From: a virus | Lineage: Duplodnaviria > Heunggongvirae > Uroviricota > Caudoviricetes | IMG/VR virus record: IMGVR_UViG_3300021400_005610 | DNA length: 64,000 nt | Reading direction: 5' to 3' (one strand) | Part shown: piece by piece, positions 41,424 through 52,987 of the stretch | How the letters are laid out: every line of letters begins with the position of its first letter | Numbering within the stretch: the stretch's first letter is position 1 | The notes under the pieces: generated by a model | What the model was told of the DNA's origin: nothing | The model's input: only the letters and a program-made list of their open reading frames with translations | Database searches by the model: none | Made by a program: the position numbers and the translations under genes

Positions 41424-41603
41424 ATGTTTGATCGAGCGTATGTGAAAGATATTACATTTAATGAGGATAAAACGAGAGCTACGTTACATTATAGTGACGG
41501 TGATTCGTTTGATGTGAAATATGAGGACTATGCACGTGCTCTTATGACGTTGGTGAATTCCAATAAGGAAGATATCCGTCGAGATTTTGCGATTGCTTCT
41601 TAA
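41424..41603 (+). CDS. small hypothetical protein (59 aa)
   Basis: GAGGTGGG RBS. Below the ORF-track size cutoff. Confidence 0.35.
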   Translation: MFDRAYVKDITFNEDKTRATLHYSDGDSFDVKYEDYARALMTLVNSNKEDIRRDFAIAS

Positions 41604-41625
41604 TTTTTAAATAGAAGGTGCTGCC

Positions 41626-41883: not shown

Positions 41884-41885
41884 AA

Positions 41886-41915
41886 AAACCGTGACATGAG
41901 TCACGGTTTTTCTTC
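41886..41915. terminator. bidirectional rho-independent terminator
   Basis: aaaaaaccgtgac atga gtcacggttttt is an A-run, hairpin, T-run arrangement that can serve the convergent + and - transcripts. Confidence 0.65.
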
Positions 41916-42152
41916 GTTTATTGGTTTGCCACATAAGCGATCTTTGCAATTTGAGCATCGTAATGCACAATTTGTGATTTCATGAAATCGTTCTGGGTGC
42001 AATGTACATGCAACTTCCCAAACGATAAGGATTACAATGGATAATGCAAGTAATGTATACGTCCATATGCCTGGAATTGCGATGAGCGGTAGAAACATCA
42101 TGGCATGGTCCCAATTGAAGATTCGACATGTGGTACAACATTTGTTGTGCAT
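41901..42152 (-). CDS. small Cys-rich membrane protein, hypothetical
   Basis: 83 aa with CCTTC and C..C..C motifs flanking a hydrophobic core. One of the only two minus-strand ORFs with a plausible context. Weak RBS. Confidence 0.3.
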   Translation of the reverse strand: MHNKCCTTCRIFNWDHAMMFLPLIAIPGIWTYTLLALSIVILIVWEVACTLHPERFHEITNCALRCSNCKDRLCGKPINEEKP

Positions 42153-42267
42153 GAAGAATGCTTTGAAAGGACACCATATGATGACGCAAATTAAATCACA
42201 GACATAAAAAGCTGTTGTGCATAAAATGACGACTTGATATGATATTGTGTGGGTGAGATAAAGAATA

Positions 42268-42477
42268 TCAATGATTGCACAGTTGCAATATCATATCTAT
42301 CATCCATATACCCCATAGAATGTGCAGGGGTGAAAATTTGGTTATGAAATTGAAACCCGTAGCTACATCAAAGTCATTTTTGCGGAAGATGTATAGTAAT
42401 ATCATGCTTATAAAAATGAGGCTTCGAAAGATGAGCCGACGGATATAAAGGGTTCGAAATCTTGATTTGGTACTCAT
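42268..42477 (-). CDS. small membrane protein, hypothetical
   Basis: 69 aa. A GAGG RBS and a TTGAAA-17-TGcTACAAT promoter lie on the minus strand at 42480-42530. Confidence 0.35.
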   Translation of the reverse strand: MSTKSRFRTLYIRRLIFRSLIFISMILLYIFRKNDFDVATGFNFITKFSPLHILWGIWMIDMILQLCNH

Positions 42478-42563
42478 TAGATTCGCCTCATTTATGTGAA
42501 ATTTCTTTTATCATTGTAGCATAAAAAAGTTCGTATTTCAATGAATTTTTTTTATTAAACCTG

Positions 42564-42592
42564 TTGACAATGCTTTGGGGAAAGAGTATAAT
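42564..42592 (+). promoter_or_regulatory. sigma70-like promoter (TTGACA-17-TATAAT) driving the leader of the tRNA array
   Basis: Consensus hexamers at 42564-42569 and 42587-42592. Divergent from the minus-strand promoter described above. Confidence 0.65.
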
Positions 42593-42668
42593 ACGGATAG
42601 GTGGTATGGAATAGCGGTTTCGTCTGATATATCCGTCCTCACTAAATTCAAAGAAGGAGAGCAAAACG

Positions 42669-42839
42669 ATGATTACACGTATTTCTGTTATAAGAAATCA
42701 TAAGTCATTTGAGGCGTACCTTGGTATGCCTGGTTTTGCATGCCCGAATTTAGAAGGACAGGATACACTGGCCAACTTGTATAAAGATGGAAAGTTTAAT
42801 AGGACACACAGGAACCGCAGCGTTGTAAGGCTGACGTAA
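42669..42839 (+). CDS. small ORF (56 aa) in tRNA-array leader transcript
   Basis: Strong RBS AGAAGGAGAG 7 nt upstream of the ATG. The protein is MITRISVIRNHKSFEAYLGMPGFACPNLEGQDT... Confidence 0.4.
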   Translation: MITRISVIRNHKSFEAYLGMPGFACPNLEGQDTLANLYKDGKFNRTHRNRSVVRLT

Positions 42840-42879
42840 GTCACCTGAAGCCCATGCACCTTTTCACATAAGGACCGAA

Positions 42880-42950
42880 GTATGGAAAGGAAATATGGGT
42901 AGAGCATATGGAACCGACATATGGAAACGACATGTGGAATTGAATCGCCT
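42880..42950 (+). repeat. short direct repeats (c)atatggaa x4-5 at ~15 bp spacing
   Basis: agtATGGAAagg aaATATGGGtag agcATATGGAAccgac ATATGGAAacgac ATGTGGAAttgaa, immediately upstream of the terminator. Confidence 0.45.
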
Positions 42951-42952
42951 GT

Positions 42953-42998
42953 GTGAGGAAACTCGAAAGAGACCAAAGCACAGGCGATTTTTATTTCA
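42953..42998 (+). terminator. rho-independent terminator
   Basis: cgcctgtg ...25 nt loop... cacaggcg followed by atttttattt. Confidence 0.6.
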
Positions 42999-43006
42999 TT
43001 GAATAT

Positions 43007-43081
43007 TGGTTCGTAGCTCAATGGCAGAGCAATCGGCTGTTAACCGATAGGTTGGGGGTTCGAGTCCCCCCGTTCCAGCCA
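43007..43081 (+). tRNA. tRNA-Asn (GTT)
   Basis: Cloverleaf with D-stem gctc/gagc and anticodon loop ctGTTaa. T-arm ggggg-ttcgagt-ccccc and an encoded CCA. The acceptor stem has two central U-U mismatches. Confidence 0.5.
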
Positions 43082-43101
43082 TGGTTCATAGGAGGTACGA
43101 T

Positions 43102-43368
43102 ATGAAATTACGACATGTGTGCGAAGTCTGTGGGAAAGAGGAAGTATTGACTCCTGATGAAGCATTTGAAAAAGGATGGGATTATCCTCCGAGAATGGGG
43201 ATGTTTGGAGTGTTATCGCCAAGAACCTGTGGTGATTGTGCGATGGTCGATACGATCTGGTGGAAATTGATGTATCAGAATGTGAAATCTGAAGATTTAT
43301 CTGATAAAGATAAGTTGACTTTGTCTCGTATCTTGAATGAACCAGCAAGTATTTTAGTTGATGAGTGA
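43102..43368 (+). CDS. Zn-ribbon protein (CxxC...CxxC), hypothetical
   Basis: AGGAGG RBS precedes ATG 43102. Contains CEVCGK...CGDC. Confidence 0.5.
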   Translation: MKLRHVCEVCGKEEVLTPDEAFEKGWDYPPRMGMFGVLSPRTCGDCAMVDTIWWKLMYQNVKSEDLSDKDKLTLSRILNEPASILVDE

Positions 43369-43376
43369 ATGGGTAT

Positions 43377-43453
43377 GGACTGGAAGCTAACTCGGTAGAA
43401 GCGCTTGGTTGAAGCCCAAGAGGAGCGGGTTCGACTCCTTGCCTAGTCCACCA
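43377..43453 (+). tRNA. aberrant tRNA-like element (Phe-like GAA anticodon arm), possible pseudo-tRNA
   Basis: Ends in CCA. The anticodon arm is cttgg-ttGAAgc-ccaag. The T-like arm aggag-cgggttcga-ctcct has a 9-nt loop. The acceptor ggactgg/cc(t)agtcc needs a 1-nt bulge and there is no variable loop. Confidence 0.3.
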
Positions 43454-43467
43454 TAGTTTGAAAGGAG

Positions 43468-43977
43468 ATGTTTAATTTGGGCGAAATGTTTATGAGGCCA
43501 AATGGTCAAGCAGTATTGCTGCAGGACATTGCGAAAATCGCAGCGGAATATATGGCGCGTAGTCCTATGTCACATTATGAGGTGACGGTAGGTACCGATA
43601 GCCAGAATTTCGATAAGACAAAGATGGTTGAGGTTATCGCATTACACCGTGTTGGTAGCGGTGGCATCTTCTTCTATCGTGTGAACTATGTGCGTCGTAT
43701 TGATAATCTGCGTCAGAAGATTCAAGAAGAAACGCAACGTAGTTTGTCCGTGGCGGACGGTTTGTTTAGTGAGATTGAAACGCAGTTAACTCACTTTGGT
43801 GTGGACATCAATGATATGGATATTCATTTCCAGATTCATTGCGACGTCGGCTACAACGGAAGCACGAAGGCTCTGATCCAAGAAATTGTTGGATGGGTTC
43901 AAGCAATGGGCTATGATTGTGCAATTAAGCCAAACAGCTATGCTGCAAGCGGAATTGCCAATAAATATAGCAAATAA
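43468..43977 (+). CDS. DUF458/YkuK-like RNase-H-fold protein (tentative)
   Basis: AAAGGAG RBS. TVGTDSQNF...MVEVIALHRVGSGGIFFY resembles the YkuK family. The family assignment is from memory and not verified. Confidence 0.45.
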   Translation: MFNLGEMFMRPNGQAVLLQDIAKIAAEYMARSPMSHYEVTVGTDSQNFDKTKMVEVIALHRVGSGGIFFYRVNYVRRIDNLRQKIQEETQRSLSVADGLFSEIETQLTHFGVDINDMDIHFQIHCDVGYNGSTKALIQEIVGWVQAMGYDCAIKPNSYAASGIANKYSK

Positions 43978-43981
43978 AAGG

Positions 43982-44014
43982 TTTCGGAGCGGAGATTTCG
44001 CTCCCGTTCCGAAA
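43982..44014 (+). terminator. stem-loop terminator
   Basis: tttcggagcgg agattt cgctcccg ttccgaaa is a nested inverted repeat. Confidence 0.45.
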
Positions 44015-44020
44015 TCATAT

Positions 44021-44098
44021 GTTGGCGGTAGCTCAATTGGTGAGAGCATCGGGTTGTGGCCCCGAAGGTTGCGAGTTCGAGTCTCGTCCGTCACCCCA
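44021..44098 (+). tRNA. tRNA-His (GTG)
   Basis: Anticodon loop ttGTGgc. An extra 5' G(-1) pairs with discriminator C, the His hallmark. T-arm gcgag-ttcgagt-ctcgt and an encoded CCA. Confidence 0.75.
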
Positions 44099-44136
44099 TG
44101 ATGGCGTAAGTCATCAAAAGAAAGGACTTTATTGGA

Positions 44137-44733
44137 ATGTTTTCAGAGAAAAATAGAAAGTTGGTCGAAGCATACCAGAATGGGTATCATCCGACAGGAC
44201 AAAATTATGAATATTATGTTGCTTGTGAATTTGAAGCATTGGGCTATAAGACCTATGTTACTCGTGCAACAGGGGATTTTGGTACGGATGTGATTGTGGA
44301 GATCAATCGCTATTTTAAGATCATTTTTCAATGTAAGTATTATAGTTCAAAGATTGGAAATCATGCTGTACAGGAGATATGTGCAGCAAAAGAGTATTAC
44401 AAGGCACAATTGTGTGTTGTAATTACAAATAACACATATACAGAAGCAGCTATGCAACTTGCTGAAGCAAATCATATACTTTTGATTCAAAATTTTGACG
44501 TAGGCGATAATATTGAGTCGGTATGTGAAGTGTTAGGGTTAATCCCTGAAAAGTACGTTACGTTAAACAAATTGAAGCTAAATGATGCATCTGCGGAGCG
44601 AGATTATCTTGTGAAACAAGTGCATGCTTTGGAAGAGGAGTTATTTGATTATCGAGTGGATCCGTGGTGGAATCCTGTTTCGATGTGGGATGACGAACCT
44701 GAGATTGAAGAGTCTGATGAAAATAGTGGTTAA
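44137..44733 (+). CDS. Mrr-cat (restriction endonuclease-like) domain protein
   Basis: GDFGTDVIVE...FQCKYY is the D-(E/Q)xK PD-(D/E)xK-like core typical of the Mrr N-terminal catalytic domain. Confidence 0.55.
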   Translation: MFSEKNRKLVEAYQNGYHPTGQNYEYYVACEFEALGYKTYVTRATGDFGTDVIVEINRYFKIIFQCKYYSSKIGNHAVQEICAAKEYYKAQLCVVITNNTYTEAAMQLAEANHILLIQNFDVGDNIESVCEVLGLIPEKYVTLNKLKLNDASAERDYLVKQVHALEEELFDYRVDPWWNPVSMWDDEPEIEESDENSG

Positions 44734-44734
44734 T

Positions 44735-44809
44735 GCGTGTGTCGTCTAACGGTGAGGATATCAGCCTTCCAAGCTGAGGGTACGGGTTCAATTCCCGTTA
44801 CACGCTCCA
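44735..44809 (+). tRNA. tRNA-Gly (TCC)
   Basis: Acceptor gcgtgtg/tacacgc, anticodon loop ctTCCaa, T-arm acggg-ttcaatt-cccgt, CCA. Confidence 0.8.
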
Positions 44810-44810
44810 T

Positions 44811-44886
44811 GGCAGAGTTAAGGAAGTGGTTGCCTTGCAGGTCTCATAAACCTGATATACGGGTTCGAATCCCGTCTCTGCTACCA
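44811..44886 (+). tRNA. tRNA-Met (CAT) elongator (or Ile-lysidine)
   Basis: Anticodon loop ctCATaa, T-arm acggg-ttcgaat-cccgt, CCA. Confidence 0.75.
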
Positions 44887-44889
44887 TAT

Positions 44890-44965
44890 GCTCTTGTAGC
44901 GCAACAGGTAGCGCGGCTGATTTGTAATCAGTAGGTTGCAGGTTCGATTCCTGTCGGGAGCTCCA
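44890..44965 (+). tRNA. tRNA-Thr (TGT)
   Basis: D-arm gcgc-aacaggta-gcgc, anticodon loop ttTGTaa, T-arm gcagg-ttcgatt-cctgt, CCA. Confidence 0.8.
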
Positions 44966-45053
44966 GCTGTTGTGGCGGAATGGAAGACGCGATAGGCTCA
45001 AACCCTATTGTCATGGAAATGGCGTGTGAGTTCAAATCTCACCAACAGTACCA
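44966..45053 (+). tRNA. tRNA-Leu (CAA), type II
   Basis: Long variable arm. Anticodon arm atagg-ctCAAac-cctat, T-arm gtgag-ttcaaat-ctcac, CCA. Confidence 0.75.
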
Positions 45054-45141
45054 GCCGATGTGGTGGAATCTGGTAGACACCCCAGACTTAAAATCTGGTG
45101 TTCGTATGAGCGTACGGGTTCGAGTCCCGTCATCGGTACCA
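45054..45141 (+). tRNA. tRNA-Leu (TAA), type II
   Basis: Anticodon arm ccaga-ctTAAaa-tctgg, long variable arm, T-arm cggg-ttcgagt-cccg, CCA. Confidence 0.75.
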
Positions 45142-45162
45142 CGAACATTAGAGAAAGGATGT

Positions 45163-45305
45163 ATGAAAAGATGTGCAAGCAGCTATCTATGGATGATATA
45201 GGATATTTTCTCTATATGCAGTCGCAAGAAGAGAAAGATGAAGATTTAGAAAATACAGAAGATGAAACATGCATCAGTGACGGAATGGAAGACGTGACAG
45301 GCTAA
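45163..45305 (+). CDS. small acidic ORF (47 aa), doubtful
   Basis: GAAAGGA RBS plus an ATG between two tRNAs. The longer track ORF 45060-45305 overlaps a tRNA and is rejected. Confidence 0.25.
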
Positions 45306-45358
45306 GAACCTGTTGTCCTTAACGGGGCGTGTGAGTTCGAATCTCACCTGATGTACCA
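45271..45358 (+). tRNA. tRNA-Leu with apparent AAG anticodon, type II
   Basis: Same architecture as the Leu(CAA) gene. The anticodon arm acagg-ctAAGaa-cctgt reads AAG at 34-36, which is unusual for bacteria. T-arm gtgag-ttcgaat-ctcac, CCA. Confidence 0.6.
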
Positions 45359-45444
45359 GGGTCGGTGAGCGGAATTGGTAACGCAGCGGGCTGTAACCCC
45401 GTGGCCTTTTGGCATTCCTGGTTCAAGTCCAGGTCGACTCACCA
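45359..45444 (+). tRNA. tRNA-Tyr (GTA), type II
   Basis: Acceptor gggtcgg/tcgactc with two G-U pairs. Anticodon loop ctGTAac, long variable arm, T-arm cctgg-ttcaagt-ccagg, CCA. Confidence 0.75.
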
Positions 45445-45450
45445 ATATTT

Positions 45451-45538
45451 GCACGAATGGCGGAACGGAAGACGCGCTGGTTTCAGAGGCCAGTGTCACG
45501 AAAGTGGCGTGAGAGTTCAAATCTCTCTTTGTGCACCA
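45451..45538 (+). tRNA. tRNA-Leu (CAG), type II
   Basis: Anticodon arm ctggt-ttCAGag-gccag, long variable arm, T-arm gagag-ttcaaat-ctctc, CCA. Confidence 0.75.
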
Positions 45539-45630
45539 GGGTTGGTGTGGCGAATTGGTGAAGCCAGCGGACTGTAAATCCGTCACCCACAGGGTAAACA
45601 TTGGAGGTCCGAGTCCTCCCCAGCCCACCA
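45539..45630 (+). tRNA. tRNA-Tyr (GTA) second copy, type II
   Basis: Acceptor gggttgg/ccagccc, anticodon loop ctGTAaa, long variable arm with a ccc-aca-ggg hairpin, T-arm ggagg-tccgagt-cctcc, CCA. Confidence 0.7.
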
Positions 45631-45633
45631 TAT

Positions 45634-45710
45634 GGCTCTGAGGGAAAACAGGTTGATCCGCCTGCCTGTCACGCAGGAGATAGCGGGTTCGAGCCCCGCC
45701 AGAGTCGCCA
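45634..45710 (+). tRNA. tRNA-Asp (GTC)
   Basis: Acceptor ggctctg/cagagtc, anticodon arm cctgc-ctGTCac-gcagg, T-arm gcggg-ttcgagc-cccgc, CCA. Confidence 0.75.
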
Positions 45711-45711
45711 T

Positions 45712-45802
45712 GACTGTGTGGTGTAATGGAAGTCGACTTAAATATATAGCACACCAAGTGGTCTCTTAGGAGGTTCAGGTTCGATTCCTGACACAGTCGC
45801 CA
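45712..45802 (+). tRNA. aberrant ~91 nt tRNA-like element (acceptor and T-arm intact, no canonical anticodon arm found)
   Basis: Acceptor gactgtg/cacagtc, T-arm tcagg-ttcgatt-cctga and CCA are all clean. The internal ~60 nt contains a ggtgt...acacc helix and I could not locate a 5-7-5 anticodon stem-loop. Confidence 0.3.
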
Positions 45803-45862
45803 AGTCCATAGGGCAATAGCAGAGGTATCGTGACAATCACTATTGCCGACGATCTATGGACT
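45803..45862 (+). ncRNA. 60-nt perfect extended hairpin (not a tRNA)
   Basis: agtccatag-ggcaatag ... ctattgcc-gacgat-ctatggact forms 9 bp + 8 bp helices around a 20 nt loop, wedged between two tRNAs. Confidence 0.35.
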
Positions 45863-45867
45863 AATCT

Positions 45868-45943
45868 GGGGTTGTAGCTCAACTGGGAGAGCGCCTGCCT
45901 TGCAAGCAGGAGGTAGAGGGTTCGACACCCTTCAGCTCCACCA
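45868..45943 (+). tRNA. tRNA-Ala (TGC)
   Basis: A G3-U70 pair (Ala identity) is present. Anticodon arm cctgc-ctTGCaa-gcagg, T-arm gaggg-ttcgaca-ccctt, CCA. Confidence 0.85.
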
Positions 45944-46032
45944 GGTTAGGAAAGCCGTTAAGAAACGAGATATCTGTTTCGATGTTACTGATATGGACGG
46001 ACAAGTGAGTTGTGATGGTTCGGCTCACATAT

Positions 46033-46108
46033 GGATTGATAGCTCAGATGGTAGAGCAGGGGACTGAAAATCCCCGTGTCGCTGGTTCAATTCCAGCTCA
46101 ATCCACCA
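46033..46108 (+). tRNA. tRNA-Phe (GAA)
   Basis: Acceptor ggattga/tcaatcc, D-arm gctc-agatggta-gagc, anticodon arm gggga-ctGAAaa-tcccc, T-arm gctgg-ttcaatt-ccagc, CCA. Confidence 0.85.
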
Positions 46109-46185
46109 GGACCGTTAGGTCAATTGGTTAGACCACTCGGCTCATAACCGAATAGTTCTGGGTTCGAGTCCCAGGCGGTCCACCA
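46109..46185 (+). tRNA. tRNA-Met (CAT) second copy (elongator, or Ile2-lysidine)
   Basis: Anticodon loop ctCATaa. It lacks the initiator GGG/CCC anticodon-stem signature. T-arm ctggg-ttcgagt-cccag, CCA. Confidence 0.7.
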
Positions 46186-46190
46186 TCGAT

Positions 46191-46267
46191 GTCCCATTAG
46201 CTCAGTGGACAAGAGTAGTACTCTCCTAAAGTACAAGTCGATGGTTCGAATCCATCATGGGACGCCA
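46191..46267 (+). tRNA. tRNA-Arg (CCT)
   Basis: Acceptor gtcccat/atgggac, anticodon arm gtact-ctCCTaa-agtac, T-arm gatgg-ttcgaat-ccatc, CCA. Confidence 0.8.
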
Positions 46268-46276
46268 AATAAATAT

Positions 46277-46354
46277 GGTGCCATAGTCGAACTGGTTGAA
46301 GACACTGGCCTTTCAAGCCAGAGAGTCGGGGTTCAAGTCCCCGTGGCATCACCA
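46277..46354 (+). tRNA. tRNA-Glu (TTC)
   Basis: Acceptor ggtgcca/tggcatc, anticodon arm ctggc-ctTTCaa-gccag, T-arm cgggg-ttcaagt-ccccg, CCA. Confidence 0.8.
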
Positions 46355-46357
46355 TAT

Positions 46358-46433
46358 GCGGTAGTAGCGCAATTGGTAGCGCACCACCTTGCCAAGGTGG
46401 ATGTTGCGGGTTCAAGCCCCGTCTACCGCTCCA
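46358..46433 (+). tRNA. tRNA-Gly (GCC)
   Basis: Acceptor gcggtag/ctaccgc, anticodon arm ccacc-ttGCCaa-ggtgg, T-arm gcggg-ttcaagc-cccgt, CCA. Confidence 0.85.
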
Positions 46434-46511
46434 GGTCCCTTCTTCTAATTGGTTTAGGAAGTTGGCCTCTCAAGCCAAAAATGCTGAGTTCGAGTCTCGC
46501 AGGGATCACCA
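46434..46511 (+). tRNA. tRNA-Glu (CTC)
   Basis: Acceptor ggtccct/agggatc, anticodon arm ttggc-ctCTCaa-gccaa. The T-arm has one mismatch. CCA. A C34 Glu isoacceptor is uncommon in low-GC bacteria. Confidence 0.65.
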
Positions 46512-46588
46512 GTGCCCGTAACTCAATGGAATAGAGTAACGGTCTTCTAAACCGTAAGTTATGGGTTCGAATCCCATCGGGCATGCCA
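46512..46588 (+). tRNA. tRNA-Arg (TCT)
   Basis: Anticodon arm acggt-ctTCTaa-accgt, T-arm atggg-ttcgaat-cccat, CCA. Confidence 0.8.
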
Positions 46589-46622
46589 TGGGTTTGTATA
46601 AATCAAAGAAAGGATGTGAAAA

Positions 46623-46859
46623 ATGGTATCTGTAAGGGTGTTATTGAATTCATTGGAAAAGGTTAAGTCTTTTGTTTCGATTGTCGGTAAGTTTGATGCA
46701 GATATGGAAATTGTTTCTGGTAAGTATATTGTTGATGCAAAGTCTATTATGGGTTTATTCAGTATGAATTTGTTAGAGCCAATGACGTTGGTTATTAAAG
46801 CAGACAATCCTGCTTGTGTGAATGTATTGGATGATATTAGACCATATGTTTATGGTTGA
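46623..46859 (+). CDS. HPr/Crh-like phosphocarrier-fold protein lacking the His15 active site
   Basis: 78 aa with a GAAAGGA RBS. GKYIVDAKSIMGLFSMNL matches the HPr Ser46 region (KSIMG), but the His15 position is replaced (LNSLEK), as in Crh. Confidence 0.55.
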   Translation: MVSVRVLLNSLEKVKSFVSIVGKFDADMEIVSGKYIVDAKSIMGLFSMNLLEPMTLVIKADNPACVNVLDDIRPYVYG

Positions 46860-46862
46860 TAT

Positions 46863-46940
46863 GCGCTTGTAGCTTAATTGGTAGAGCAGCGGACTCTTAA
46901 TCCGAAGGTTTTGGGGGTTCAAGTCCCTTCAGGCGCACCA
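46863..46940 (+). tRNA. tRNA-Lys (CTT)
   Basis: Acceptor gcgcttg/caggcgc, D-arm gctt-aattggta-gagc, anticodon arm gcgga-ctCTTaa-tccga, T-arm ggggg-ttcaagt-ccctt, CCA. Confidence 0.75.
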
Positions 46941-46988
46941 TCGAGTCCTACTATTGTCATTAGGCTGTTGAGCCGTAAGGAGGACATT

Positions 46989-47585
46989 ATGAGTTATTAC
47001 TATAATTATTATGTCGGATATAAGAAAGATGGAAAGATTTATCCGTGGGGTCCTTACAATGCGAATGGTAAGTTAGAACCAATGGTCAGTCGTTCCAGAT
47101 CTTTTGCTTCGGATTTACATGAGGAGTTTGATACTGTATCTGATAAGGAAGTTTCAGAAGAACTTCGTAAAGAATTTGAGTATGAGGATTGGAATAAGGT
47201 CAAGCATCTTGATGTAAAATATCTTTCCGAAAAGGATTTACCGACAGGAAGTTATATTAGGACAGGTTATTTTTTGATTAAAGATGTCCAAGCATATGAG
47301 CATGATGAGTATGGTAATTTCGAAGGTTTTTATGATGTCCTTAGTCCTGAAGTTTATGCGGCAAAATTACAGCATGAAATGATGTTTGGTAAGAATCAAC
47401 CTGAGAAAGACGATGAAGGCAATGAATATACAGAGCCAAATGCATCGGATTATATGTACTATGCGTATCCTAATTATGAGACGAAAGAGTACGAATCGTT
47501 CATTCTTCGGCAGTTAATTGAGGCTTTGCGTGATTATCGTTTGGGTAATGATATTGAGTATGTCGTTTTAGAAACGGAAGGTTGA
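46989..47585 (+). CDS. hypothetical protein (Tyr-rich N-terminus)
   Basis: Strong RBS GTAAGGAGG. The track ORF start at 46878 overlaps the tRNA and is rejected in favour of ATG 46989. Confidence 0.55.
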   Translation: MSYYYNYYVGYKKDGKIYPWGPYNANGKLEPMVSRSRSFASDLHEEFDTVSDKEVSEELRKEFEYEDWNKVKHLDVKYLSEKDLPTGSYIRTGYFLIKDVQAYEHDEYGNFEGFYDVLSPEVYAAKLQHEMMFGKNQPEKDDEGNEYTEPNASDYMYYAYPNYETKEYESFILRQLIEALRDYRLGNDIEYVVLETEG

Positions 47586-47596
47586 TCCTTTCGTAT

Positions 47597-47670
47597 CGAG
47601 ATGGTGGTGTAATGGTAGCACGCATCGTTCGGGACGATGAGGCGACGTTCAAATCGTACCATTTCGACCA
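47597..47670 (+). tRNA. tRNA-Pro (CGG)
   Basis: Acceptor cgagatg/catttcg, anticodon arm catcg-ttCGGga-cgatg with G37. The T-arm is weak at 3 bp. CCA. Confidence 0.6.
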
Positions 47671-47696
47671 ATTTCTTATGTAAAGGGGTTAACGGT

Positions 47697-47966
47697 ATGT
47701 TCCATAACATTGTGATTGGCAGACCTTTGGTTGAGCCGTGGAAGTTAATTTCAAGTTCTAAAGAAGAGTTTGAAAGATTTGATAAACGCGATACGTTATT
47801 TACCAATGAGAGGTTTCTTCCAGCTGTGCTTGTAGAAGCAAATGTCGTATCTTCTCGTGGAGAAGTTCGAAGAAATAAACCAGAATTATGTAAGGAACTG
47901 AATAATTTGGATTGTTTGTGGGTAAAATGGGGGAAACAGAAGATTTATGTGATTGTTGGTGAGTAA
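47697..47966 (+). CDS. hypothetical protein
   Basis: ATG 47697 is preceded by AAAGGGG. The track ORF start at 47637 overlaps the tRNA. Confidence 0.45.
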   Translation: MFHNIVIGRPLVEPWKLISSSKEEFERFDKRDTLFTNERFLPAVLVEANVVSSRGEVRRNKPELCKELNNLDCLWVKWGKQKIYVIVGE

Positions 47967-47969
47967 TTT

Positions 47970-48045
47970 GCGTCTGTAGCTTAGGCGGTAGAGCAGCGGA
48001 CTTTTAATCCGAAGGTCGGGAGTTCAAGTCTCCCCAGACGCACCA
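47970..48045 (+). tRNA. tRNA-Lys (TTT)
   Basis: Perfect acceptor gcgtctg/cagacgc, anticodon arm gcgga-ctTTTaa-tccga, T-arm gggag-ttcaagt-ctccc, CCA. Confidence 0.85.
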
Positions 48046-48340
48046 GTGTGTTGGTAGCCAAGCAATAAAAGGCAGTAAGACAATAGCGGTTCCATTAAGC
48101 AGAACACTTGGAGAACGAACTCCAGAGCGCATGGCGGCTAAGAGAGACTCTGTATAGTAAAATGACCGAGTGCTGAAGCATTTATATTATGCAGAGGGAG
48201 ACCCAATCGACAAGGTGAATGAGGTCGAGCCTACGCAGTTTCACCAAATAACGTTGTGTCACTCTGTATGGAACGTCGTGTGATTGATGTCGAAACCTGC
48301 GTCGTGGATGCAGAAGTCGACTACTGCACACCCAACACAC
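48046..48340 (+). ncRNA. candidate ~295-nt structured non-coding RNA between tRNA-Lys and tRNA-Pro
   Basis: No credible ORF on either strand. A terminal 9-bp helix gtgtgttgg(48046)/ccaacacac(48332) closes the element. Internal helices are tggag-aacgaa-ctcca, tcgac-13nt-gtcga, a long-range acgcagtttc/gaaac-c-tgcgt pairing (48234/48292), and tgcag-10nt-ctgca. Confidence 0.4.
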
Positions 48341-48345
48341 ATTAT

Positions 48346-48421
48346 CTGGGTGTAGTGCAATTGGTAGCATGCGTGATTTGGGATCACGTGGTTGTGGGTT
48401 CAAATCCCGCCACTCAGACCA
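48346..48421 (+). tRNA. tRNA-Pro (TGG)
   Basis: Acceptor ctgggtg/cactcag, anticodon arm cgtga-ttTGGga-tcacg with G37, T-arm gtggg-ttcaaat-cccgc, CCA. Confidence 0.8.
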
Positions 48422-48498
48422 AATTTGTGTATTGTGTTATCTCCGTGGCGGATTTATAATTTTTGTAGAAATAAATCCAGAAAGGATGGTAAGTTGAT

Positions 48499-48972
48499 AT
48501 GGCAAATGAAATCAAAAACGGAAGATTGCATGTTGATGGGAAGAGAATTCCGTTGTCTATGGATGAAGCTCGTTCTATGAAGATGAATGCCTTTACAGGA
48601 CGACAGGTATCTGAAGAAGCATCGGTTGAAATTCCTGAAGATAAGAAGGGTCAATATGCTTTTACACAGGATATTCTGCAGAAGAAGATGAAGCCTGATA
48701 AGGAATTGTCGTATACGGAAGATGAATATAAAGCTGCTGAAGATGTGTATGGCAGAATGCGTACAGCACAATCCATGGCTATGGATAGTTTGATGCCATC
48801 TGATGAAGAGTTTAAGGCTTTAAATACCGATGCGTTTACGGCTGTTACGAGGGATGCTGCTGAGAGAGAAGCTGAAGCAAAGCGTCAGGAGCGTTTGAAG
48901 AAAGCCGAAGAATTGTCGTCACGTGTTAGTGAACCGACAGAATCTCCACTGGCAGAGTACGGAATTTATTAA
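48499..48972 (+). CDS. hypothetical protein
   Basis: 157 aa with an AAAGGATGG RBS. Charged and probably helical. Confidence 0.5.
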   Translation: MANEIKNGRLHVDGKRIPLSMDEARSMKMNAFTGRQVSEEASVEIPEDKKGQYAFTQDILQKKMKPDKELSYTEDEYKAAEDVYGRMRTAQSMAMDSLMPSDEEFKALNTDAFTAVTRDAAEREAEAKRQERLKKAEELSSRVSEPTESPLAEYGIY

Positions 48973-49220
48973 AACTTTTTTCTCGAAATCTATTGATTTC
49001 TGAGTAAAAGTATGGTATTATATAGTTGCGTCGGAAAGACGAGAAGAAATGAGAAAGGATGTCACGAAAATGATGAATTTCACTATGAGTCAAAGTTCAC
49101 AGGTCATTATTCGCTGGTCGCAGGTATGCTCCCAGTTTATTTGTCGTGGACGGGTAACTCATTCCTAATGTGAGATCATCTGATTTTCTTTGTGATATTT
49201 GAGAAAAAGGGGAATCACAA

Positions 49221-49270
49221 CACCGTTCGCGATAGGATAGGATTATCCGAAGCGAGCGGTGTTTTTTATT
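49221..49270 (+). terminator. rho-independent terminator
   Basis: caccgttcgc ...21 nt... gcgagcggtg followed by ttttttatt. Confidence 0.6.
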
Positions 49271-49277
49271 AAAAAAT

Positions 49278-49366
49278 GGTAGTGTCGCTCAATGGTGGAG
49301 CAACTGCCTTGAAAGCAGCCAGTCGAGGGCCTCGACCTGCAGGTTCGAATCCTGCCACTACCGCCA
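49278..49366 (+). tRNA. tRNA-Ser (TGA), type II
   Basis: Perfect acceptor ggtagtg/cactacc. Anticodon loop ctTGAaa. Variable-arm hairpin gtcgagg-gcc-tcgac. T-arm gcagg-ttcgaat-cctgc, CCA. Confidence 0.8.
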
Positions 49367-49461
49367 GGTGATATAAACCTAATTGGTAAGGTCCCTGTCT
49401 CGAAAACAGGTAGTAGCCCTGTTAAAGGGGTGTTTCGGTTCAAGTCCGAATATCACCGCCA
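49367..49461 (+). tRNA. tRNA-Ser (CGA), type II
   Basis: Acceptor ggtgata/tatcacc, anticodon arm cctgt-ctCGAaa-acagg, long variable arm, T-arm ttcgg-ttcaagt-ccgaa, CCA. Confidence 0.8.
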
Positions 49462-49466
49462 CAAAT

Positions 49467-49560
49467 GGAGTCGTAAGCCTAATTGGTAAGGCGCCGATTT
49501 GGAAGGTCGGTAGTAATCCTGCTGAGGGGTGTGTTGGTTCGAGTCCAATCGACTCCGCCA
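49467..49560 (+). tRNA. tRNA-Ser (GGA), type II
   Basis: Acceptor ggagtcg/cgactcc, anticodon arm ccgat-ttGGAag-gtcgg, long variable arm, T-arm gttgg-ttcgagt-ccaat, CCA. Confidence 0.8.
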
Positions 49561-49580
49561 TTTGAAAGGATGTGTGAAGT

Positions 49581-49871
49581 TTGACAGAACAAAGAGTATT
49601 GGAATTTATTCATAGACGCTTTCCTCAGGATTGTAACTGGAAGAATGGAAATTGTTATTTCTTTGCAGTGATTCTAAAAAGTAGATTTCCAGAAGGAATT
49701 ATTCTTTACGATGTGATTGACGGTCATTTTGTGACACACATCGATGGACGAAATTATGACTGGTCGGGTGTTGTTTCTGATGAAGGAAAGCATTATTATG
49801 TTGAGTGGGATTATTTCGATGAGTATGATTCTAATCAGAAGAAATCTGTGATTGACGGATGTATTCTTTGA
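49581..49871 (+). CDS. hypothetical protein (TTG start)
   Basis: GAAAGGA RBS 10 nt upstream of TTG 49581. The only upstream in-frame ATG is immediately followed by a stop. Confidence 0.45.
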   Translation: MTEQRVLEFIHRRFPQDCNWKNGNCYFFAVILKSRFPEGIILYDVIDGHFVTHIDGRNYDWSGVVSDEGKHYYVEWDYFDEYDSNQKKSVIDGCIL

Positions 49872-49876
49872 TAAAT

Positions 49877-49951
49877 AGGGGTATGGTGTTAACGGTAGCA
49901 TATCGGTCTCCAAAACCGCAGGTGAGGGTTCGAGTCCTTCTGCCCCTGCCA
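49877..49951 (+). tRNA. tRNA-Trp (CCA)
   Basis: Acceptor aggggta/tgcccct, anticodon loop ctCCAaa on a 4 bp stem, T-arm gaggg-ttcgagt-ccttc, CCA. Confidence 0.7.
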
Positions 49952-50093
49952 CGTTCAGAGTCATGAACTGAACGATATCTTAACGATTCGTAAGTGACGT
50001 AATCAGCTGTAAAGACGTGCCACCTGAAGCATTCGATATGTACGGTGCTTTGGGTGAGATCCGACTATGAATCGGCGAAGACGAATCGGATAT

Positions 50094-50170
50094 AGGGTGT
50101 TAGCTCAGCTGGGACGAGCATTTGTCTTACAAGCAAAAGGTCGTGGGTTCGATCCCCACACACCCTACCA
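50094..50170 (+). tRNA. tRNA-Val (TAC)
   Basis: D-arm gctc-agctgggac-gagc, anticodon arm tttgt-ctTACaa-gcaaa, T-arm gtggg-ttcgatc-cccac, CCA. Confidence 0.8.
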
Positions 50171-50245
50171 TGGGATATGGCGTAATTGGTAACGCATCGG
50201 ACTCTGACTCCGAAGTTACAGGTTCAAGTCCTGTTGTCCCAGCCA
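50171..50245 (+). tRNA. tRNA-Gln (CTG)
   Basis: A U1-A72 pair as in bacterial tRNA-Gln. Anticodon arm tcgga-ctCTGac-tccga, T-arm acagg-ttcaagt-cctgt, CCA. Confidence 0.8.
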
Positions 50246-50320
50246 TGGGTTATAGCGTAAGTGGTAGCGCACGGGACTTTGACTCCCGACGTACAGGTTC
50301 GAGCCCTGTTAGCCCAGCCA
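50246..50320 (+). tRNA. tRNA-Gln (TTG)
   Basis: Acceptor tgggtta/tagccca, anticodon arm cggga-ctTTGac-tcccg, T-arm acagg-ttcgagc-cctgt, CCA. Confidence 0.8.
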
Positions 50321-50414
50321 GGAGACGTAGCATAGTCGGTCGAATGCACCCGCCTGCTAAGCGGGAGAACGGTGAATAATCGTTCCGAGGGTTCGAATCC
50401 CTCCGTCTCCGCCA
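50321..50414 (+). tRNA. tRNA-Ser (GCT), type II
   Basis: Perfect acceptor ggagacg/cgtctcc, anticodon arm cccgc-ctGCTaa-gcggg, long variable arm, T-arm gaggg-ttcgaat-ccctc, CCA. Confidence 0.85.
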
Positions 50415-50453
50415 TGTTGTATTGATTGGCTTTTATTATGAAAGGTTGTGATT

Positions 50454-50960
50454 ATGAGTATAGAAACTGCAGAAGCGTTATTTAAGAAATATGATGGTCA
50501 TATTAATCTTTTACGGAAAAACGAACCGTCATCGTATGCAATCATAAGCGCTGCGTGCTTGAGTGATGATTGTTACGAAGAGTGGCGTAAAGAAATTTTG
50601 GACGGCATAACGCAAATGGGTGTTTCTGATATTTTCAATATTACATGGTTTATTCGTTTTGTGTCTGTATTTAAAGAAATGAATCGGAATGAAACATATC
50701 GGTTTGATTGTTTGGTTGATTTATTGAGAGCATATGTGAAGAGCAATGATTCTTGTAAGATCGAGATATTGCGTAAGATGGTTGGTAATGTTCGTTTCGG
50801 TTATCGAGATGGCTTGCTTTATTGGGTGTTACGAAATACTTCTGGATTTAGTGTCGTAGAGGCTATTATGCAGCAGAATTATGTAAATGTAGATTCTAAT
50901 AATCCTTCTTTAGTTGATCTGAGTGAGCAATATAAGAAGGCTGTATATAAATTTGTGTGA
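50454..50960 (+). CDS. hypothetical protein
   Basis: ATG 50454 has a GAAAGG RBS. The track start GTG 50448 is also possible. Confidence 0.5.
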   Translation: MSIETAEALFKKYDGHINLLRKNEPSSYAIISAACLSDDCYEEWRKEILDGITQMGVSDIFNITWFIRFVSVFKEMNRNETYRFDCLVDLLRAYVKSNDSCKIEILRKMVGNVRFGYRDGLLYWVLRNTSGFSVVEAIMQQNYVNVDSNNPSLVDLSEQYKKAVYKFV

Positions 50961-50965
50961 TATTT

Positions 50966-51042
50966 GACTGCGTACCCAAGTGGCTTAAGGGGGCAGACTG
51001 CAAATCTGTTATTCGTTGGTTCGAATCCAACCGTAGTCTCCA
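50966..51042 (+). tRNA. tRNA-Cys (GCA)
   Basis: Acceptor gactgcg/cgtagtc, anticodon arm gcaga-ctGCAaa-tctgt, T-arm gttgg-ttcgaat-ccaac, CCA. Confidence 0.75.
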
Positions 51043-51119
51043 TCTGGAGTAGCTCAGACGGTTAGAGCGTCCGCCTGATAAGCGGGAGGTCGGCAGTTCA
51101 AGTCTGCCCTTCAGAACCA
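51043..51119 (+). tRNA. tRNA-Ile (GAT)
   Basis: D-arm gctc-agacggtta-gagc, anticodon arm tccgc-ctGATaa-gcggg, T-arm ggcag-ttcaagt-ctgcc, CCA. U1-A72 is unusual. Confidence 0.75.
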
Positions 51120-51195
51120 GTCCCCATAGGCTAATGGAATAGACCCTTCGGCTACGAACCGAACAGTGGAGGTTCGAATCCTCCTGGGGATGCCA
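51120..51195 (+). tRNA. tRNA-Arg (ACG)
   Basis: Acceptor gtcccca/tggggat, anticodon arm ttcgg-ctACGaa-ccgaa, T-arm ggagg-ttcgaat-cctcc, CCA. Confidence 0.8.
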
Positions 51196-51261
51196 TTGCA
51201 TAAGACGTTATGCAATCACATGTTATGGTATACCAGAAATTGAGAAAGGAGCTCCTGTGTA

Positions 51262-51912
51262 ATGAAAGAAAATTTAACTGAGTTGGTGTTTATTCTGGAT
51301 AGAAGCGGTTCTATGAGTGCTTTGACAGATGACACAATTGGTGGGTTCAATTCTTTGATTGAGTCCCAGAAAGCAGAAGAGGGCGAAGCGTTCGTCACAA
51401 CTGTATTGTTTGACGATAAGTACGAATTATTGCATGATCATGTGAATATCAAGGATGTTCTGCCTTTGACACGGAAAGAGTATTTCGCAAGAGGTATGAC
51501 AGCATTGTTAGATGCGATTGGTCGTACCATCAATACGATTGGTGAGAGACTTGCAAAGACGCCTGAAGAGGAACGTCCGAGTCGTGTTGTAATTGCCATC
51601 ACGACAGATGGCTTTGAAAATGCAAGTAAGGAATTTACGAAGAAACAGATTAAGGACATGATTGAGCATCAGCAGTCCAAGTATTCTTGGGTGTTTATGT
51701 TCCTTGGTGCAAATATGGACGCTGTTTCTGAGGCTGAGTCTCTTGGTATTCGTGGAACGATGGCAAGAACGTATACGAATTCGAGCAGAGGTGTGGAAAC
51801 TGTTTACACAGCAATGTCTGCTTCGATGAGCTTGGCTCGTGAGGCTAAGTCTTCTGTATGTTTGGATGATTTGGCTGCAGAAATGAGTTCTGCATTGGAT
51901 GAAGTCGAATAA
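51262..51912 (+). CDS. von Willebrand factor type A (vWA) domain protein
   Basis: MIDAS motif DRSGSMS near the N-terminus (ILDRSGSMSALTDD), then conserved T and D positions. GAAAGGAG RBS. Confidence 0.8.
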   Translation: MKENLTELVFILDRSGSMSALTDDTIGGFNSLIESQKAEEGEAFVTTVLFDDKYELLHDHVNIKDVLPLTRKEYFARGMTALLDAIGRTINTIGERLAKTPEEERPSRVVIAITTDGFENASKEFTKKQIKDMIEHQQSKYSWVFMFLGANMDAVSEAESLGIRGTMARTYTNSSRGVETVYTAMSASMSLAREAKSSVCLDDLAAEMSSALDEVE

Positions 51913-52889: not shown

Positions 52890-52952
52890 TTCTATACGAA
52901 AATAATGCGACAATTATGGGTCCAAAACCTAGTTTTTGAGTTGTTGAAATTG

Positions 52953-52987
52953 AAACGGAGAGGTTTTTATCCTCTCCGTTTTTTTAT
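52953..52987 (+). terminator. rho-independent terminator
   Basis: aaacggagagg-ttttat-cctctccgttt plus a T-run. Confidence 0.7.

Follow-up and report, generated by a model that had tools for sequence, protein, structure and literature searches.

The window, meaning the whole 64,000-nt stretch of DNA that was analysed, is part of a 284-kb conjugative-type element (a megaplasmid) and not an obvious phage, and the location on a mobile element given in the first-pass annotation is borne out by a MobL relaxase, a VirD4-like coupling protein, a topoisomerase, and ParA/ParM-like genes. A 78-aa ORF, running from ATG to TGA, lies within a long tRNA array, flanked, as had been described, by tRNA genes (for tRNA-Arg and tRNA-Lys), and it is a real gene. 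The features of the region are as follows, with the basis for each in parentheses:

42564..42592 (+), sigma70-type consensus promoter TTGACA-17-TATAAT upstream of the array, 12/12 matches (consensus scan)
43007..51195 (+), array of 36 tRNA genes for all 20 amino acids, with small ORFs interspersed (ARAGORN; Rfam)
46512..46588 (+), tRNA-Arg(tct), CCA encoded, ending 34 nt ahead of the ATG (ARAGORN; RF00005, 68.4 bits)
46609..46614 (+), Shine-Dalgarno sequence AAAGGA, with the ATG 8 nt downstream (direct reading of the sequence)
46623..46859 (+), gene of the short His-less HPr-fold protein, 'sHPr' (ORF, Pfam, AF2, Foldseek, dN/dS)
46863..46940 (+), tRNA-Lys(ctt), separated from the stop codon by 3 nt (ARAGORN; RF00005, 61.6 bits)
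52952..52982 (+), strong hairpin resembling an intrinsic terminator, past the final ORF of the array region (terminator scan)

Judging from this arrangement, the promoter at 42564..42592 probably drives a transcript that carries the gene, and the hairpin at 52952..52982 is probably the end of the transcription unit; a consensus scan of the plus strand from 44511 to 48162 detected no promoter-like site.

The gene product is an HPr-fold protein in which the PTS site is lost and the serine regulatory site is intact. Residues 16-72 of the 78 match the Pfam family PF00381 (E=1.2e-6, 28.9 bits against a gathering cut-off of 23), the score against the NCBIfam HPr model TIGR01003 is 19.1 bits (cut-off 47.9), and the profile of the short family described below aligns by hhalign with B. 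subtilis HPr and Crh over the full length (probability 98%, E=5e-13). The AlphaFold2 (AF2) model (pLDDT 93.9, pTM 0.83) has the HPr topology, with strands at residues 2-6, 27-32, 35-38, and 54-59 and helices at 11-21, 42-46, and 62-71, and the first 40 Foldseek matches in the PDB are all HPr or Crh (TM 0.70-0.74 for most of the significant ones), non-HPr matches having probabilities below 0.35. Both profile comparison and structure prediction thus return the fold that had been proposed for this protein, and the extent of the Pfam and hhalign alignments rules out a short fortuitous motif. Matches in the PDB include complexes of HPr with Rsd, glycogen phosphorylase, and FruR.

The gene occupies the same position in L165, a related element from another sample, and the comparison of the two copies points to purifying selection (dN/dS=0.16, from small counts of 9 synonymous and 6 nonsynonymous differences). 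Seven variants of the protein from the element lineage are 86-100% identical, with residues 37-62 essentially invariant. A defence or antidefence role was considered and rejected, since the protein has no match in PADLOC and no PHROG.

The absence of the catalytic histidine and the retention of the Ser46-type loop, both read from the sequence earlier, hold up. In the residue register taken from HMMER (residue 16 of the query being HPr 21), the positions that matter are encoded as follows:

46641..46661 (+), codons of L7-K13, shortened loop and N-terminus of helix A replacing the HPr active-site loop (HMMER, AF2, hhalign)
46650-46652 (+), codon of S10, at the His15 N-cap position
46737..46766 (+), codons of A39-M48, Ser46-type loop and helix B (HMMER register, conservation)
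46740-46742 (+), codon of K40
46743-46745 (+), codon of S41, equivalent to HPr Ser46

The 78-aa protein is devoid of histidine, and the equivalent of His15 is Ser10. The loop that carries His15 and Arg17 in HPr has a 3-residue deletion by hhalign, so that the motif G-I-H-A-R-P is shortened and both residues are gone; E12 stands at the position equivalent to Arg17 in the HMMER register, within helix A (residues 11-21) of the AF2 model. Over 103 diverse family members, which are otherwise approximately 35-55% identical, position 10 is S, T, or N, and position 12 is D, E, or N (D or E in 74%). Since there is no histidine at all in the protein, a PTS phosphocarrier role is impossible as judged from the sequence, that is, the protein cannot be a PTS phosphocarrier. 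The loop AKSIMGLFSM (residues 39-48), on the other hand, falls in the near-invariant stretch of the family, D-A-K-S-I-M-G-x-F-S-L-D-L, which spans the Ser46 loop and helix B. K40, S41, and I42 are 100% conserved in the 103 members and D38, A39, M43, G44, S47, and L50 are 93-99% conserved, figures that are partly biased by the seeding of two of the family searches on the peptide DAKSIMG. The family also has conserved residues of its own that are absent from canonical HPr, namely R/K34 (92%), Y35 (92%), K15 (83%), and D29 (75%).

In Gram-positive bacteria, HPr and Crh are classic hubs of carbon regulation, and in B. subtilis both are substrates of HPr kinase/phosphorylase (HprK/P). With B. subtilis HPr (PtsH; PDB 2FEP chain S), the protein shares the open-faced beta-sandwich, homology over the full length, and a nearly identical Ser46 loop and helix B (LKSIMGVMSLG in HPr, AKSIMGLFSMN here). 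It differs in lacking His15 and Arg17, in a loop 3 residues shorter, and in an overall length 10 residues shorter; HPr accepts phosphate from enzyme I and passes it on, which the 78-aa protein cannot do. There are also no ptsI or other PTS neighbours, the window gene lying between tRNAs and its chromosomal relatives between mtaB and thiI.

The conceptual model for an HPr-like regulator that works through serine only is Crh (PDB 2RLZ and 1ZVV), which is likewise an HPr paralogue without a phosphorylatable histidine and likewise keeps AKSIMG. The first-pass annotation had equated the two situations, and this equation is not supported. Crh (85 aa) has a full-length loop, Gln15-Ala-Arg17-Pro (LQARPA), and so keeps Arg17, whereas the 78-aa protein has the shortened NSLEKV with an acidic residue at the Arg17 position, and the whole short family has the 3-residue deletion with Asp or Glu there. 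NF010354, which we take to be the Crh model, is the best NCBIfam match of the protein, but the score is 26.3 bits against a cut-off of 123. Crh is found in Bacillaceae, while the short family is found in Lachnospiraceae and their mobile elements, in another genomic context (mtaB/thiI, not a crh-type operon). The protein is therefore not an orthologue of Bacillus Crh and belongs to a distinct short (approximately 78 aa) family, a third and structurally distinct type beside HPr and Crh, in which the loop is shortened, His15 and Arg17 are lost, and the Ser46 site does not vary.

This short family comprises 1,736 clusters (at 50% identity; E<=1e-10) and at least 591 loci in species-representative genomes, of which the best 80 are almost all from Lachnospiraceae. 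Its hallmarks are a length of approximately 74-82 aa, the shortened active-site loop, and the motif G-R/K-Y-x-x-D-A-K-S-I-M-G-x-F-S-x-x-L; the window protein, with 78 aa, has every hallmark motif position and is 43-57% identical to chromosomal members among the matches listed. On chromosomes, the neighbours are mtaB, thiI, nifS, rsmE, and prmA, the family gene being convergent with thiI and divergent from mtaB (64 of 80 Lachnospiraceae loci); the divergent arrangement with mtaB recurs in Monoglobus, a member of another taxonomic order, where a nucleoside deaminase is nearby. On its strand the chromosomal family gene stands alone, and it is served by a σA promoter of its own (54 of 59 loci have AGGAGG together with a σA-type promoter, versus 0.2 in shuffles). 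Present on the chromosomes of Lachnospiraceae and related bacteria, the short family seems to be a σA-promoted part of the gene core in Lachnospiraceae, which rank among the dominant families of the gut in humans. Three modes of control found no support: (i) sporulation-specific expression, an idea that came from SleB-type neighbours, in view of these vegetative σA-type promoters; (ii) control of the chromosomal gene by CcpA, since cre boxes are absent from its upstream regions (0 of 59, as in shuffles); and (iii) a riboswitch or leader RNA, since the chromosomal leader is only approximately 40 nt long and Rfam matches in 41000-53500 of the window are tRNAs only. In databases the family goes under 'HPr family phosphocarrier protein' and carries a GO term for the PTS, an assignment that must be wrong for a protein without the phosphotransfer histidine. 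Our search of the literature on His-less HPr paralogues in Clostridia found nothing on the short family, and passages from the paper on the B. cereus 'Hpr-like' protein Bc1009 (PMC9912610) offer no link to it.

The window copy, surrounded by tRNA genes on a conjugative-type element, has no mtaB/thiI synteny and so counts, as do the phage copies, among the mobile copies of the family. The phage copies are numerous enough that calling the gene an unusual cargo went too far, with relatives known from 125 IMG/VR contigs, BFVD, and Enterocloster phages that have been isolated. The automatically annotated phage HPr-like proteins, such as the 'phosphocarrier protein' of Enterocloster phage PMBT24 (WDQ45469.1; this copy goes unmentioned in the PMBT24 paper) and the BFVD entries A0A8S5S213, A0A8S5PSI8, and A0A8S5S9E0 (TM 0.76-0.85 to the AF2 model), are of the same short family; tblastn matches in phages are 38-42% identical over residues 1-50 and have the DAKSIMG motif in common. 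One difference is seen in the Enterocloster phage group, where a histidine (FHTPEEV) immediately precedes the His15-equivalent position, while the window protein has none. Host DNA in contigs classed as viral was rejected as the source of these copies, as mtaB/thiI synteny was found in 0 of 80 viral loci; a separate GenBank entry labelled as a phage, MT835522, looks bacterial. In a plasmid database there were three matches only, all on large chromid-like replicons. The family gene has been captured repeatedly by large phages and by a conjugative-type element.

In the tailed phages, the neighbours of the family gene are Hydrolase_2 and nucleotide-metabolism genes. Often the gene directly follows Hydrolase_2: in three phage groups with distinct sequences, Hydrolase_2 precedes it on the same strand with a gap of 16-40 nt, and two further groups have it within 1.3-3.3 kb; the window copy differs in its tRNA array and its conjugative-type element. 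No recurrent kinase, phosphatase, or regulator was seen beside the phage copies, and no neighbour gene is common to the chromosomal, phage, and plasmid contexts. Neither the chromosomal and phage neighbours nor the search for cre boxes revealed a link to carbon metabolism.

The explanation that we favour overall, and to which we would give an even chance, is that this large unnamed family has its Ser41 read by the host HprK/P, acts through a noncanonical partner or through competition for the kinase, and is carried by mobile elements as extra host activity. The proposed mechanism has the following steps: (i) Ser41 would be recognised by the host HPr kinase/phosphorylase; (ii) in a protein without His15, the seryl-phosphorylation state would report only the metabolic inputs of the kinase (ATP, fructose-1,6-bisphosphate, and phosphate) and not PTS transport; (iii) the phospho or dephospho form would act on a partner, probably not CcpA in the canonical geometry, or, alternatively, the protein may simply compete with HPr for the kinase; and (iv) with every family-conserved residue retained in them, the mobile-element copies probably supply extra host activity, coexpressed here with the tRNAs of the element, and not a specialised inhibitor. 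Phosphorylation of the 78-aa protein by HprK/P is plausible from its sequence, KSIMG being common to B. subtilis HPr and Crh while E. coli HPr has AKSLFK instead. The second of the contacts that HprK/P makes with HPr is at the His15/helix-A region, and as that region is remodelled in the 78-aa protein, recognition could be lost. HprK/P binds HPr with two subunits, through the catalytic site of one and the C-terminal helix of the second (PMC9399212), and the phosphorylations of His15 and Ser46 are mutually antagonistic (PMC3526391).

An alternative, which we consider unlikely, is that the protein is a phosphorylation-independent binder that modulates an enzyme or regulator through its helix-B face together with K15, F17, G33-R34-Y35, D27, and D29, Ser41 having a structural or contact role only. 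The family-own conserved residues listed above would fit such a surface, HPr is known to bind many proteins, as the three PDB complexes illustrate, and Ser46 is conserved in E. coli HPr, where HprK is lacking, so that its conservation may be partly structural. Genomic context suggests cell-wall hydrolysis and phage nucleotide metabolism as candidate areas, Hydrolase_2 being close to the family gene in five phage groups. Against this, K-S-I-M-G matches the form found in HprK/P substrates and not the enterobacterial one, and the chromosomal, phage, and plasmid contexts share no single neighbour.

Rather improbable is a Crh-like corepressor, in which HprK/P would phosphorylate Ser41 and the P-Ser form would bind the host CcpA and drive cre-dependent repression or activation. 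The HPr fold, the intact KSIMG loop, and the NF010354 match are all compatible with it, but the score of that match, the genomic context, and the loop itself, 3 residues shorter and with Glu in place of the Arg17 of the Crh A-R-P-A, are not what a Crh-like protein would have. According to what Horstmann 2007 and the CcpA-HPr-Ser46-P structure are said to show, CcpA is contacted by both His15 and Arg17, the latter forming pairs with aspartates of CcpA, so that the reversal of charge at the Arg17 position should be unfavourable for this contact; with neither His15 nor Arg17 available, corepression through CcpA in its known geometry is doubtful. Crh demonstrates that His15 as such is dispensable for CcpA-dependent regulation (PMC3526391). 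A further parallel is HPr2 of Faecalibacterium prausnitzii, also a regulatory paralogue of gut Clostridia that works via Ser46 phosphorylation, which acts as P-Ser on the non-CcpA partner FruR and does not bind the CcpA-like protein, but which differs in that His15 is still present and the length is that of a normal HPr (PMC11906611).

A function linked to tRNA or translation, suggested by the tRNA array in the window and by the chromosomal tRNA-modification neighbours (mtaB, thiI, nifS, and the Monoglobus deaminase), is very unlikely. The gene does lie between tRNAs here, three other viral contigs (L103, L106, and L107) have a tRNA-array gene within approximately 1 kb, and the divergent arrangement with mtaB is frequent. 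However, tRNAs occur within 6 kb at no more than 5 of 80 viral loci (75 have none), an association no greater than that of a random gene in large phages, and tRNA association was rejected as a general feature of the family; the chromosomal gene, alone on its strand and served by a separate σA promoter, does not form an operon with the tRNA-modification genes, and the fold gives no hint of RNA binding. That the gene is a decaying passenger without function on the element is extremely improbable, as its greater nucleotide divergence between the two element copies (6.3% versus approximately 2% in the flanks) is set against the low dN/dS, the near-invariance of residues 37-62, an intact frame with a Shine-Dalgarno sequence, and the identical position of the gene in L165.

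Returning to the favoured explanation, in which Ser41 would be read by HprK/P, a bolder form of it can be put forward tentatively, as a possibility with clearly less than an even chance: the short family may be an unrecognised output branch of HprK/P in gut Clostridia, serine only, insulated from the PTS, and directed at a non-CcpA partner, with large phages and megaplasmids repeatedly bringing a copy of their own to set the switch in the cell that they infect or inhabit. On such a reading, the phage copies would often travel with a SleB-type hydrolase, and the window copy would be cotranscribed with a complete tRNA set. Should HprK/P indeed act on the family and a dedicated partner exist, catabolite signalling in gut anaerobes would gain a new branch, one that mobile elements tap.

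Direct tests are within reach, as an isolated phage-host pair, PMBT24 and Enterocloster bolteae, is at hand. The peptide SIMGIFSLDLSK is a tryptic peptide of the short His-less HPr family protein. The copy in L. eligens has AKSMLG, is located in a gluconate-symporter/dehydratase operon, and may represent a separate subtype.

The window protein, MVSVRVLLNSLEKVKSFVSIVGKFDADMEIVSGKYIVDAKSIMGLFSMNLLEPMTLVIKADNPACVNVLDDIRPYVYG (78 aa), is a true HPr-fold protein and belongs to a defined family. Pfam model PF00381 (PTS-HPr) matched residues 16-72 (E=1.2e-6; 28.9 bits, exceeding the gathering score of 23), and sequence matches in the PDB, which were weak (at best E=0.003, for B. megaterium HPr 1RZR), set the register, window residue 16 corresponding to HPr residue 21; a search of PHROGs with the protein gave no match. 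An AlphaFold2 model built on an alignment of ten relatives (pLDDT 93.9, pTM 0.83) has the secondary-structure order of HPr, and its top 40 Foldseek matches in the PDB were HPr or Crh without exception, with TM 0.70-0.74 for most of the significant ones. A profile of 103 family members aligned over its full length with HPr and Crh of B. subtilis (98% probability, E=5e-13), the reference sequences having been verified against PDB chains 2FEP_S and 2RLZ_A. The HPr likeness proposed in the first-pass annotation is thus upheld by both structure prediction and alignment.

The profile alignment requires a 3-residue deletion in the family, located in the His15/Arg17 loop. By residue equivalences that rest on the HMMER register and on helix A of the model (residues 11-21), His15 corresponds to Ser10, the helix A N-cap (family: S 51%, T 31%, N 7%), and Arg17 to Glu12 (D 38%, E 36%, N 10%). 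The catalytic histidine had been reported missing at first pass, and there is indeed no histidine in the whole protein; judged from its sequence, it cannot serve as a PTS phosphocarrier. Within the family, a histidine near the site occurs only in the Enterocloster-phage subgroup (FHTPEEV), one residue earlier than the His15 equivalent. The Ser46 region, comprising the previously noted loop AKSIMGLFSM (confirmed as residues 39-48), is where constraint is strongest across the 103 members: K40, S41 and I42 are 100% conserved, followed by G44 (99%), D38 (97%), S47 (96%), L50 (95%), A39 (94%), M43 (93%) and F46 (88%), values inflated for the DAKSIMG peptide, on which two of the sequence-supplying searches were seeded. 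Matches from the exhaustive profile search, which was not seeded on this peptide, retain the serine site too, mostly as KSIMG. Conserved residues specific to the family are K15 (83%), F17 (95%), G33 (82%), R/K34 (92%) and Y35 (92%). The KSIMG form is present in B. subtilis HPr and Crh; since E. coli HPr has its Ser46 in AKSLFK, Ser46 by itself is not diagnostic, with KSIMG as the version seen in known HprK/P substrates.

We rate as an even chance that the window protein is an HprK/P-linked switch or competitor. HprK/P is, to our knowledge, the sole enzyme acting on the KSIMG serine site, and since this site is invariant, recognition by HprK/P would be its best explanation. A phosphorylation-independent binding role for the protein we consider unlikely. 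Counting against the HprK/P link are the second-subunit contact of the kinase, which presumably falls on the region remodelled in the family, and the surroundings of the gene, where no context indicating sugar metabolism was found. Through this contact, made by the C-terminal helix of the second subunit, HprK/P takes a further grip on its substrate (PMC9399212). If HprK/P recognises the window protein at the KSIMG serine, phosphorylation there would, without His15, be free of the antagonism that PTS-dependent histidine phosphorylation exerts on the seryl phosphorylation of HPr (PMC3526391), so that the protein would report the kinase's metabolic inputs alone; a partner other than CcpA is conceivable, as Faecalibacterium HPr2-Ser-P, which co-activates FruR, provides a precedent (PMC11906611).

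The likeness to Bacillus Crh drawn in the first-pass annotation stands in concept, the window protein functioning most like Crh in being a Ser-only HPr paralogue; membership does not, as the Crh tests that were run, on profile score, the loop with Arg17, length and genomic context, all came out negative. NCBIfam NF010354, which we take to be the Crh model, matched weakly (26 bits; cut-off 123), as did the NCBIfam HPr model TIGR01003 (19 bits; cut-off 47.9). A true Crh-like CcpA cofactor is slightly less probable than a phosphorylation-independent binder, and canonical CcpA co-repression is doubtful, because His15 and Arg17 both take part in the structure of CcpA with HPr-Ser46-P (as the title of a 2007 study by Horstmann reportedly also says), whereas the window protein has a shorter loop and an acidic residue in the place of Arg17.

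The family, of which the window protein is a mobile representative, has no name of its own and is handled by databases as generic HPr; literature searching found no description of it. A word-indexed search returned 11 relatives only; exhaustive profile searching returned 4,419 cluster representatives when the threshold was E<=0.001 and 1,736 when it was E<=1e-10, the inspected ones having the common consensus MKTVKISLNSIDKVKSFVN..FD.DFDLVSGRYVIDAKSIMGIFSLDLSKPIDLNIHA. Species-representative genomes hold at least 591 confirmed loci, the best 80 of which are nearly all from Lachnospiraceae (Blautia, Dorea, Faecalicatena, Butyrivibrio, Hungatella, Lacrimispora, Roseburia and others), with 43-57% identity to the window protein; NCBI labels the chromosomal relatives 'HPr family phosphocarrier protein'. 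By our own ORF calling and clustering, the neighbourhood is very stable over these 80 loci (L005-L084): the HPr-like gene is the sole gene on its strand, divergent from a radical-SAM gene (64/80) and convergent with thiI (57/80), then nifS/iscS, rsmE and prmA (identified by eye). Upstream, 54 of the 59 usable regions contain TTGAC[AT]-N16-18-TAnnAT, against an average of 0.2 in shuffles, the -10 element ending a median of 41.5 nt from the ATG, with an AGGAGG ribosome-binding site; a cre box was found in 0/59, equal to shuffles. With this σA-type promoter, short leader and lone strand, the chromosomal gene looks vegetative and σA-dependent, and it shares no operon with the genes beside it. In Monoglobus pectinilyticus, which belongs to another order (Monoglobales), the gene is likewise divergent from the corresponding radical-SAM gene, annotated mtaB, and followed by a nucleoside deaminase gene and ppdK; the mtaB pairing thus outlasts the remaining synteny. 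Two variants also occur: a 157-aa protein from one metagenome contig (P0012) fuses two short HPr-like domains in tandem, each with GKSLMG, and a 627-kb replicon of Lachnospira eligens (L170, 6001-6234) encodes a divergent 77-aa paralogue with AKSMLG, placed on the same strand between genes for a gluconate:H+ symporter and for an ilvD-type dehydratase, the one setting observed to suggest sugar-acid metabolism.

By tblastn against GenBank phages, the family was found in phage contigs from human faeces and in six Enterocloster bolteae phage isolates; the PMBT24 copy is annotated 'phosphocarrier protein' and is undiscussed in the PMBT24 paper. In IMG/VR, a relative is present on 125 contigs, many of which are 80-400 kb long, and the 80 loci analysed comprise at least 36 distinct sequences. 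Since the chromosomal synteny is present at none of these 80, the viral-contig copies are true mobile contexts. All family-conserved residues are retained in the mobile copies, which argues that they would do the host protein's job and not exert a specialised antagonism. Neighbours in phages, assigned either by eye or through precomputed Pfam matches, belong mostly to nucleotide metabolism (NrdD/NrdG, ThyA/ThyX, DHFR, dUTPase, guanylate kinase). In three sequence-distinct phage groups, the HPr-like gene is preceded at 16-40 nt, on its own strand, by a gene for Hydrolase_2 (a SleB-type cell-wall hydrolase), and two further groups have such a gene 1.3-3.3 kb or less away (phage loci L001, 3542-4237; L163; L164; L108; L173, 5318-6246; L174). 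Three phage proteins of the family in BFVD have TM 0.76-0.85 to the model, better than real HPr. The 81-aa gut-phage member A0A8S5PSI8 bears the evidently mis-transferred name 'Catabolite control protein A', and GenBank MT835522 ('Bacteriophage sp.', UNVERIFIED), with gcvPA, gcvPB, gcvH and gcvT-like ORFs around its HPr-like gene (by eye), looks like bacterial chromosome and not phage.

The features of the window around the gene and along its element are as follows.

46623-46859, + strand: HPr-like gene (ATG start, TGA stop, 78 aa)
46512-46588, + strand: tRNA-Arg(tct), its CCA end 34 nt ahead of the HPr-like gene start
46863-46940, + strand: tRNA-Lys(ctt), beginning 3 nt past the TGA
43007-51195, + strand: array of 36 tRNA genes, all with encoded CCA, for all 20 amino acids
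41315-41350: strong terminator, ahead of the promoter
42564-42592: perfect sigma70 consensus promoter TTGACA-17-TATAAT, between that terminator and the first tRNA
52952-52982: strong terminator after the tRNA array region
29311-31410, 37522-41313, 6687-8960, 2045-2827 and 8-1033, among others: genes for MobL relaxase, VirD4/TraG-like protein, topoisomerase, ParA-like protein, ParM/Alp and D5-type primase-helicase
33342-35144 and 57460-60051: ClpB-like double-AAA protein and SpoVK/CbxX-type AAA+ protein (AAA plus AAA_lid_6)

The coupling protein (VirD4/TraG-like) has 1,263 aa, the topoisomerase is of type IA, ParM/Alp is actin-like and the ParA-like protein is an ATPase; a Phage_lysozyme2-domain protein and RecD2 are also encoded. 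Every long ORF lies on the + strand, and no phage structural genes were seen among those scanned. The element resembles a giant conjugative plasmid or giant integrative element, and its host would be a member of the Bacillota, probably one close to Lachnospiraceae. It also encodes a full-length SecA (60635-63064; SecA_DEAD E=9e-118, preprotein-binding and wing/scaffold domains), an uncommon gene for a plasmid or phage.

As first described, the gene lies between two tRNAs, both members of the same-strand array, with a Shine-Dalgarno AAAGGA 8 nt ahead of its ATG. Because neither a promoter-like nor a terminator-like site was found on the + strand over 44511-48162, and a promoter and terminators bracket the array, the gene is probably cotranscribed with the tRNAs, in which case its mRNA ends would arise by processing of the flanking ones. 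A tRNA-linked role is nevertheless highly improbable: tRNA context is no general feature of the family, as a tRNA lies within 6 kb at 5/80 viral loci, with arrays at three only. That the gene is a dead passenger has a close to negligible chance. The identical protein is encoded on a 284,210-bp metagenome scaffold, from which the window derives, and a 61.7-kb contig from another sample (L165, 6001-6237) has the same layout and a copy 92% identical, with dN/dS 0.16; the gene has diverged by 6.3% of nucleotides and its flanks by about 2%, the elements being otherwise 97.5-98.4% identical. The two copies differ at six amino acids, clustered in residues 28-33 and 63-64 and clear of the invariant Ser loop, and residues 37-62 are nearly unchanged over seven close variants.

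The full 20-amino-acid array itself sits on a conjugative plasmid-like element, seemingly not a phage, and has about a dozen small ORFs between its tRNAs, mostly without family match. One array protein of 198 aa (44137-44733) has an Mrr_cat nuclease domain and matches the PADLOC models for Zorya ZorD and type IV restriction at their Mrr-like nuclease ends (E=2.5e-15). A second tRNA-Tyr(gta) call (45539-45630; 92 nt; Rfam 29.3 bits against a threshold of 29, model positions 10-63) may represent a tRNA that is atypical or degenerate.
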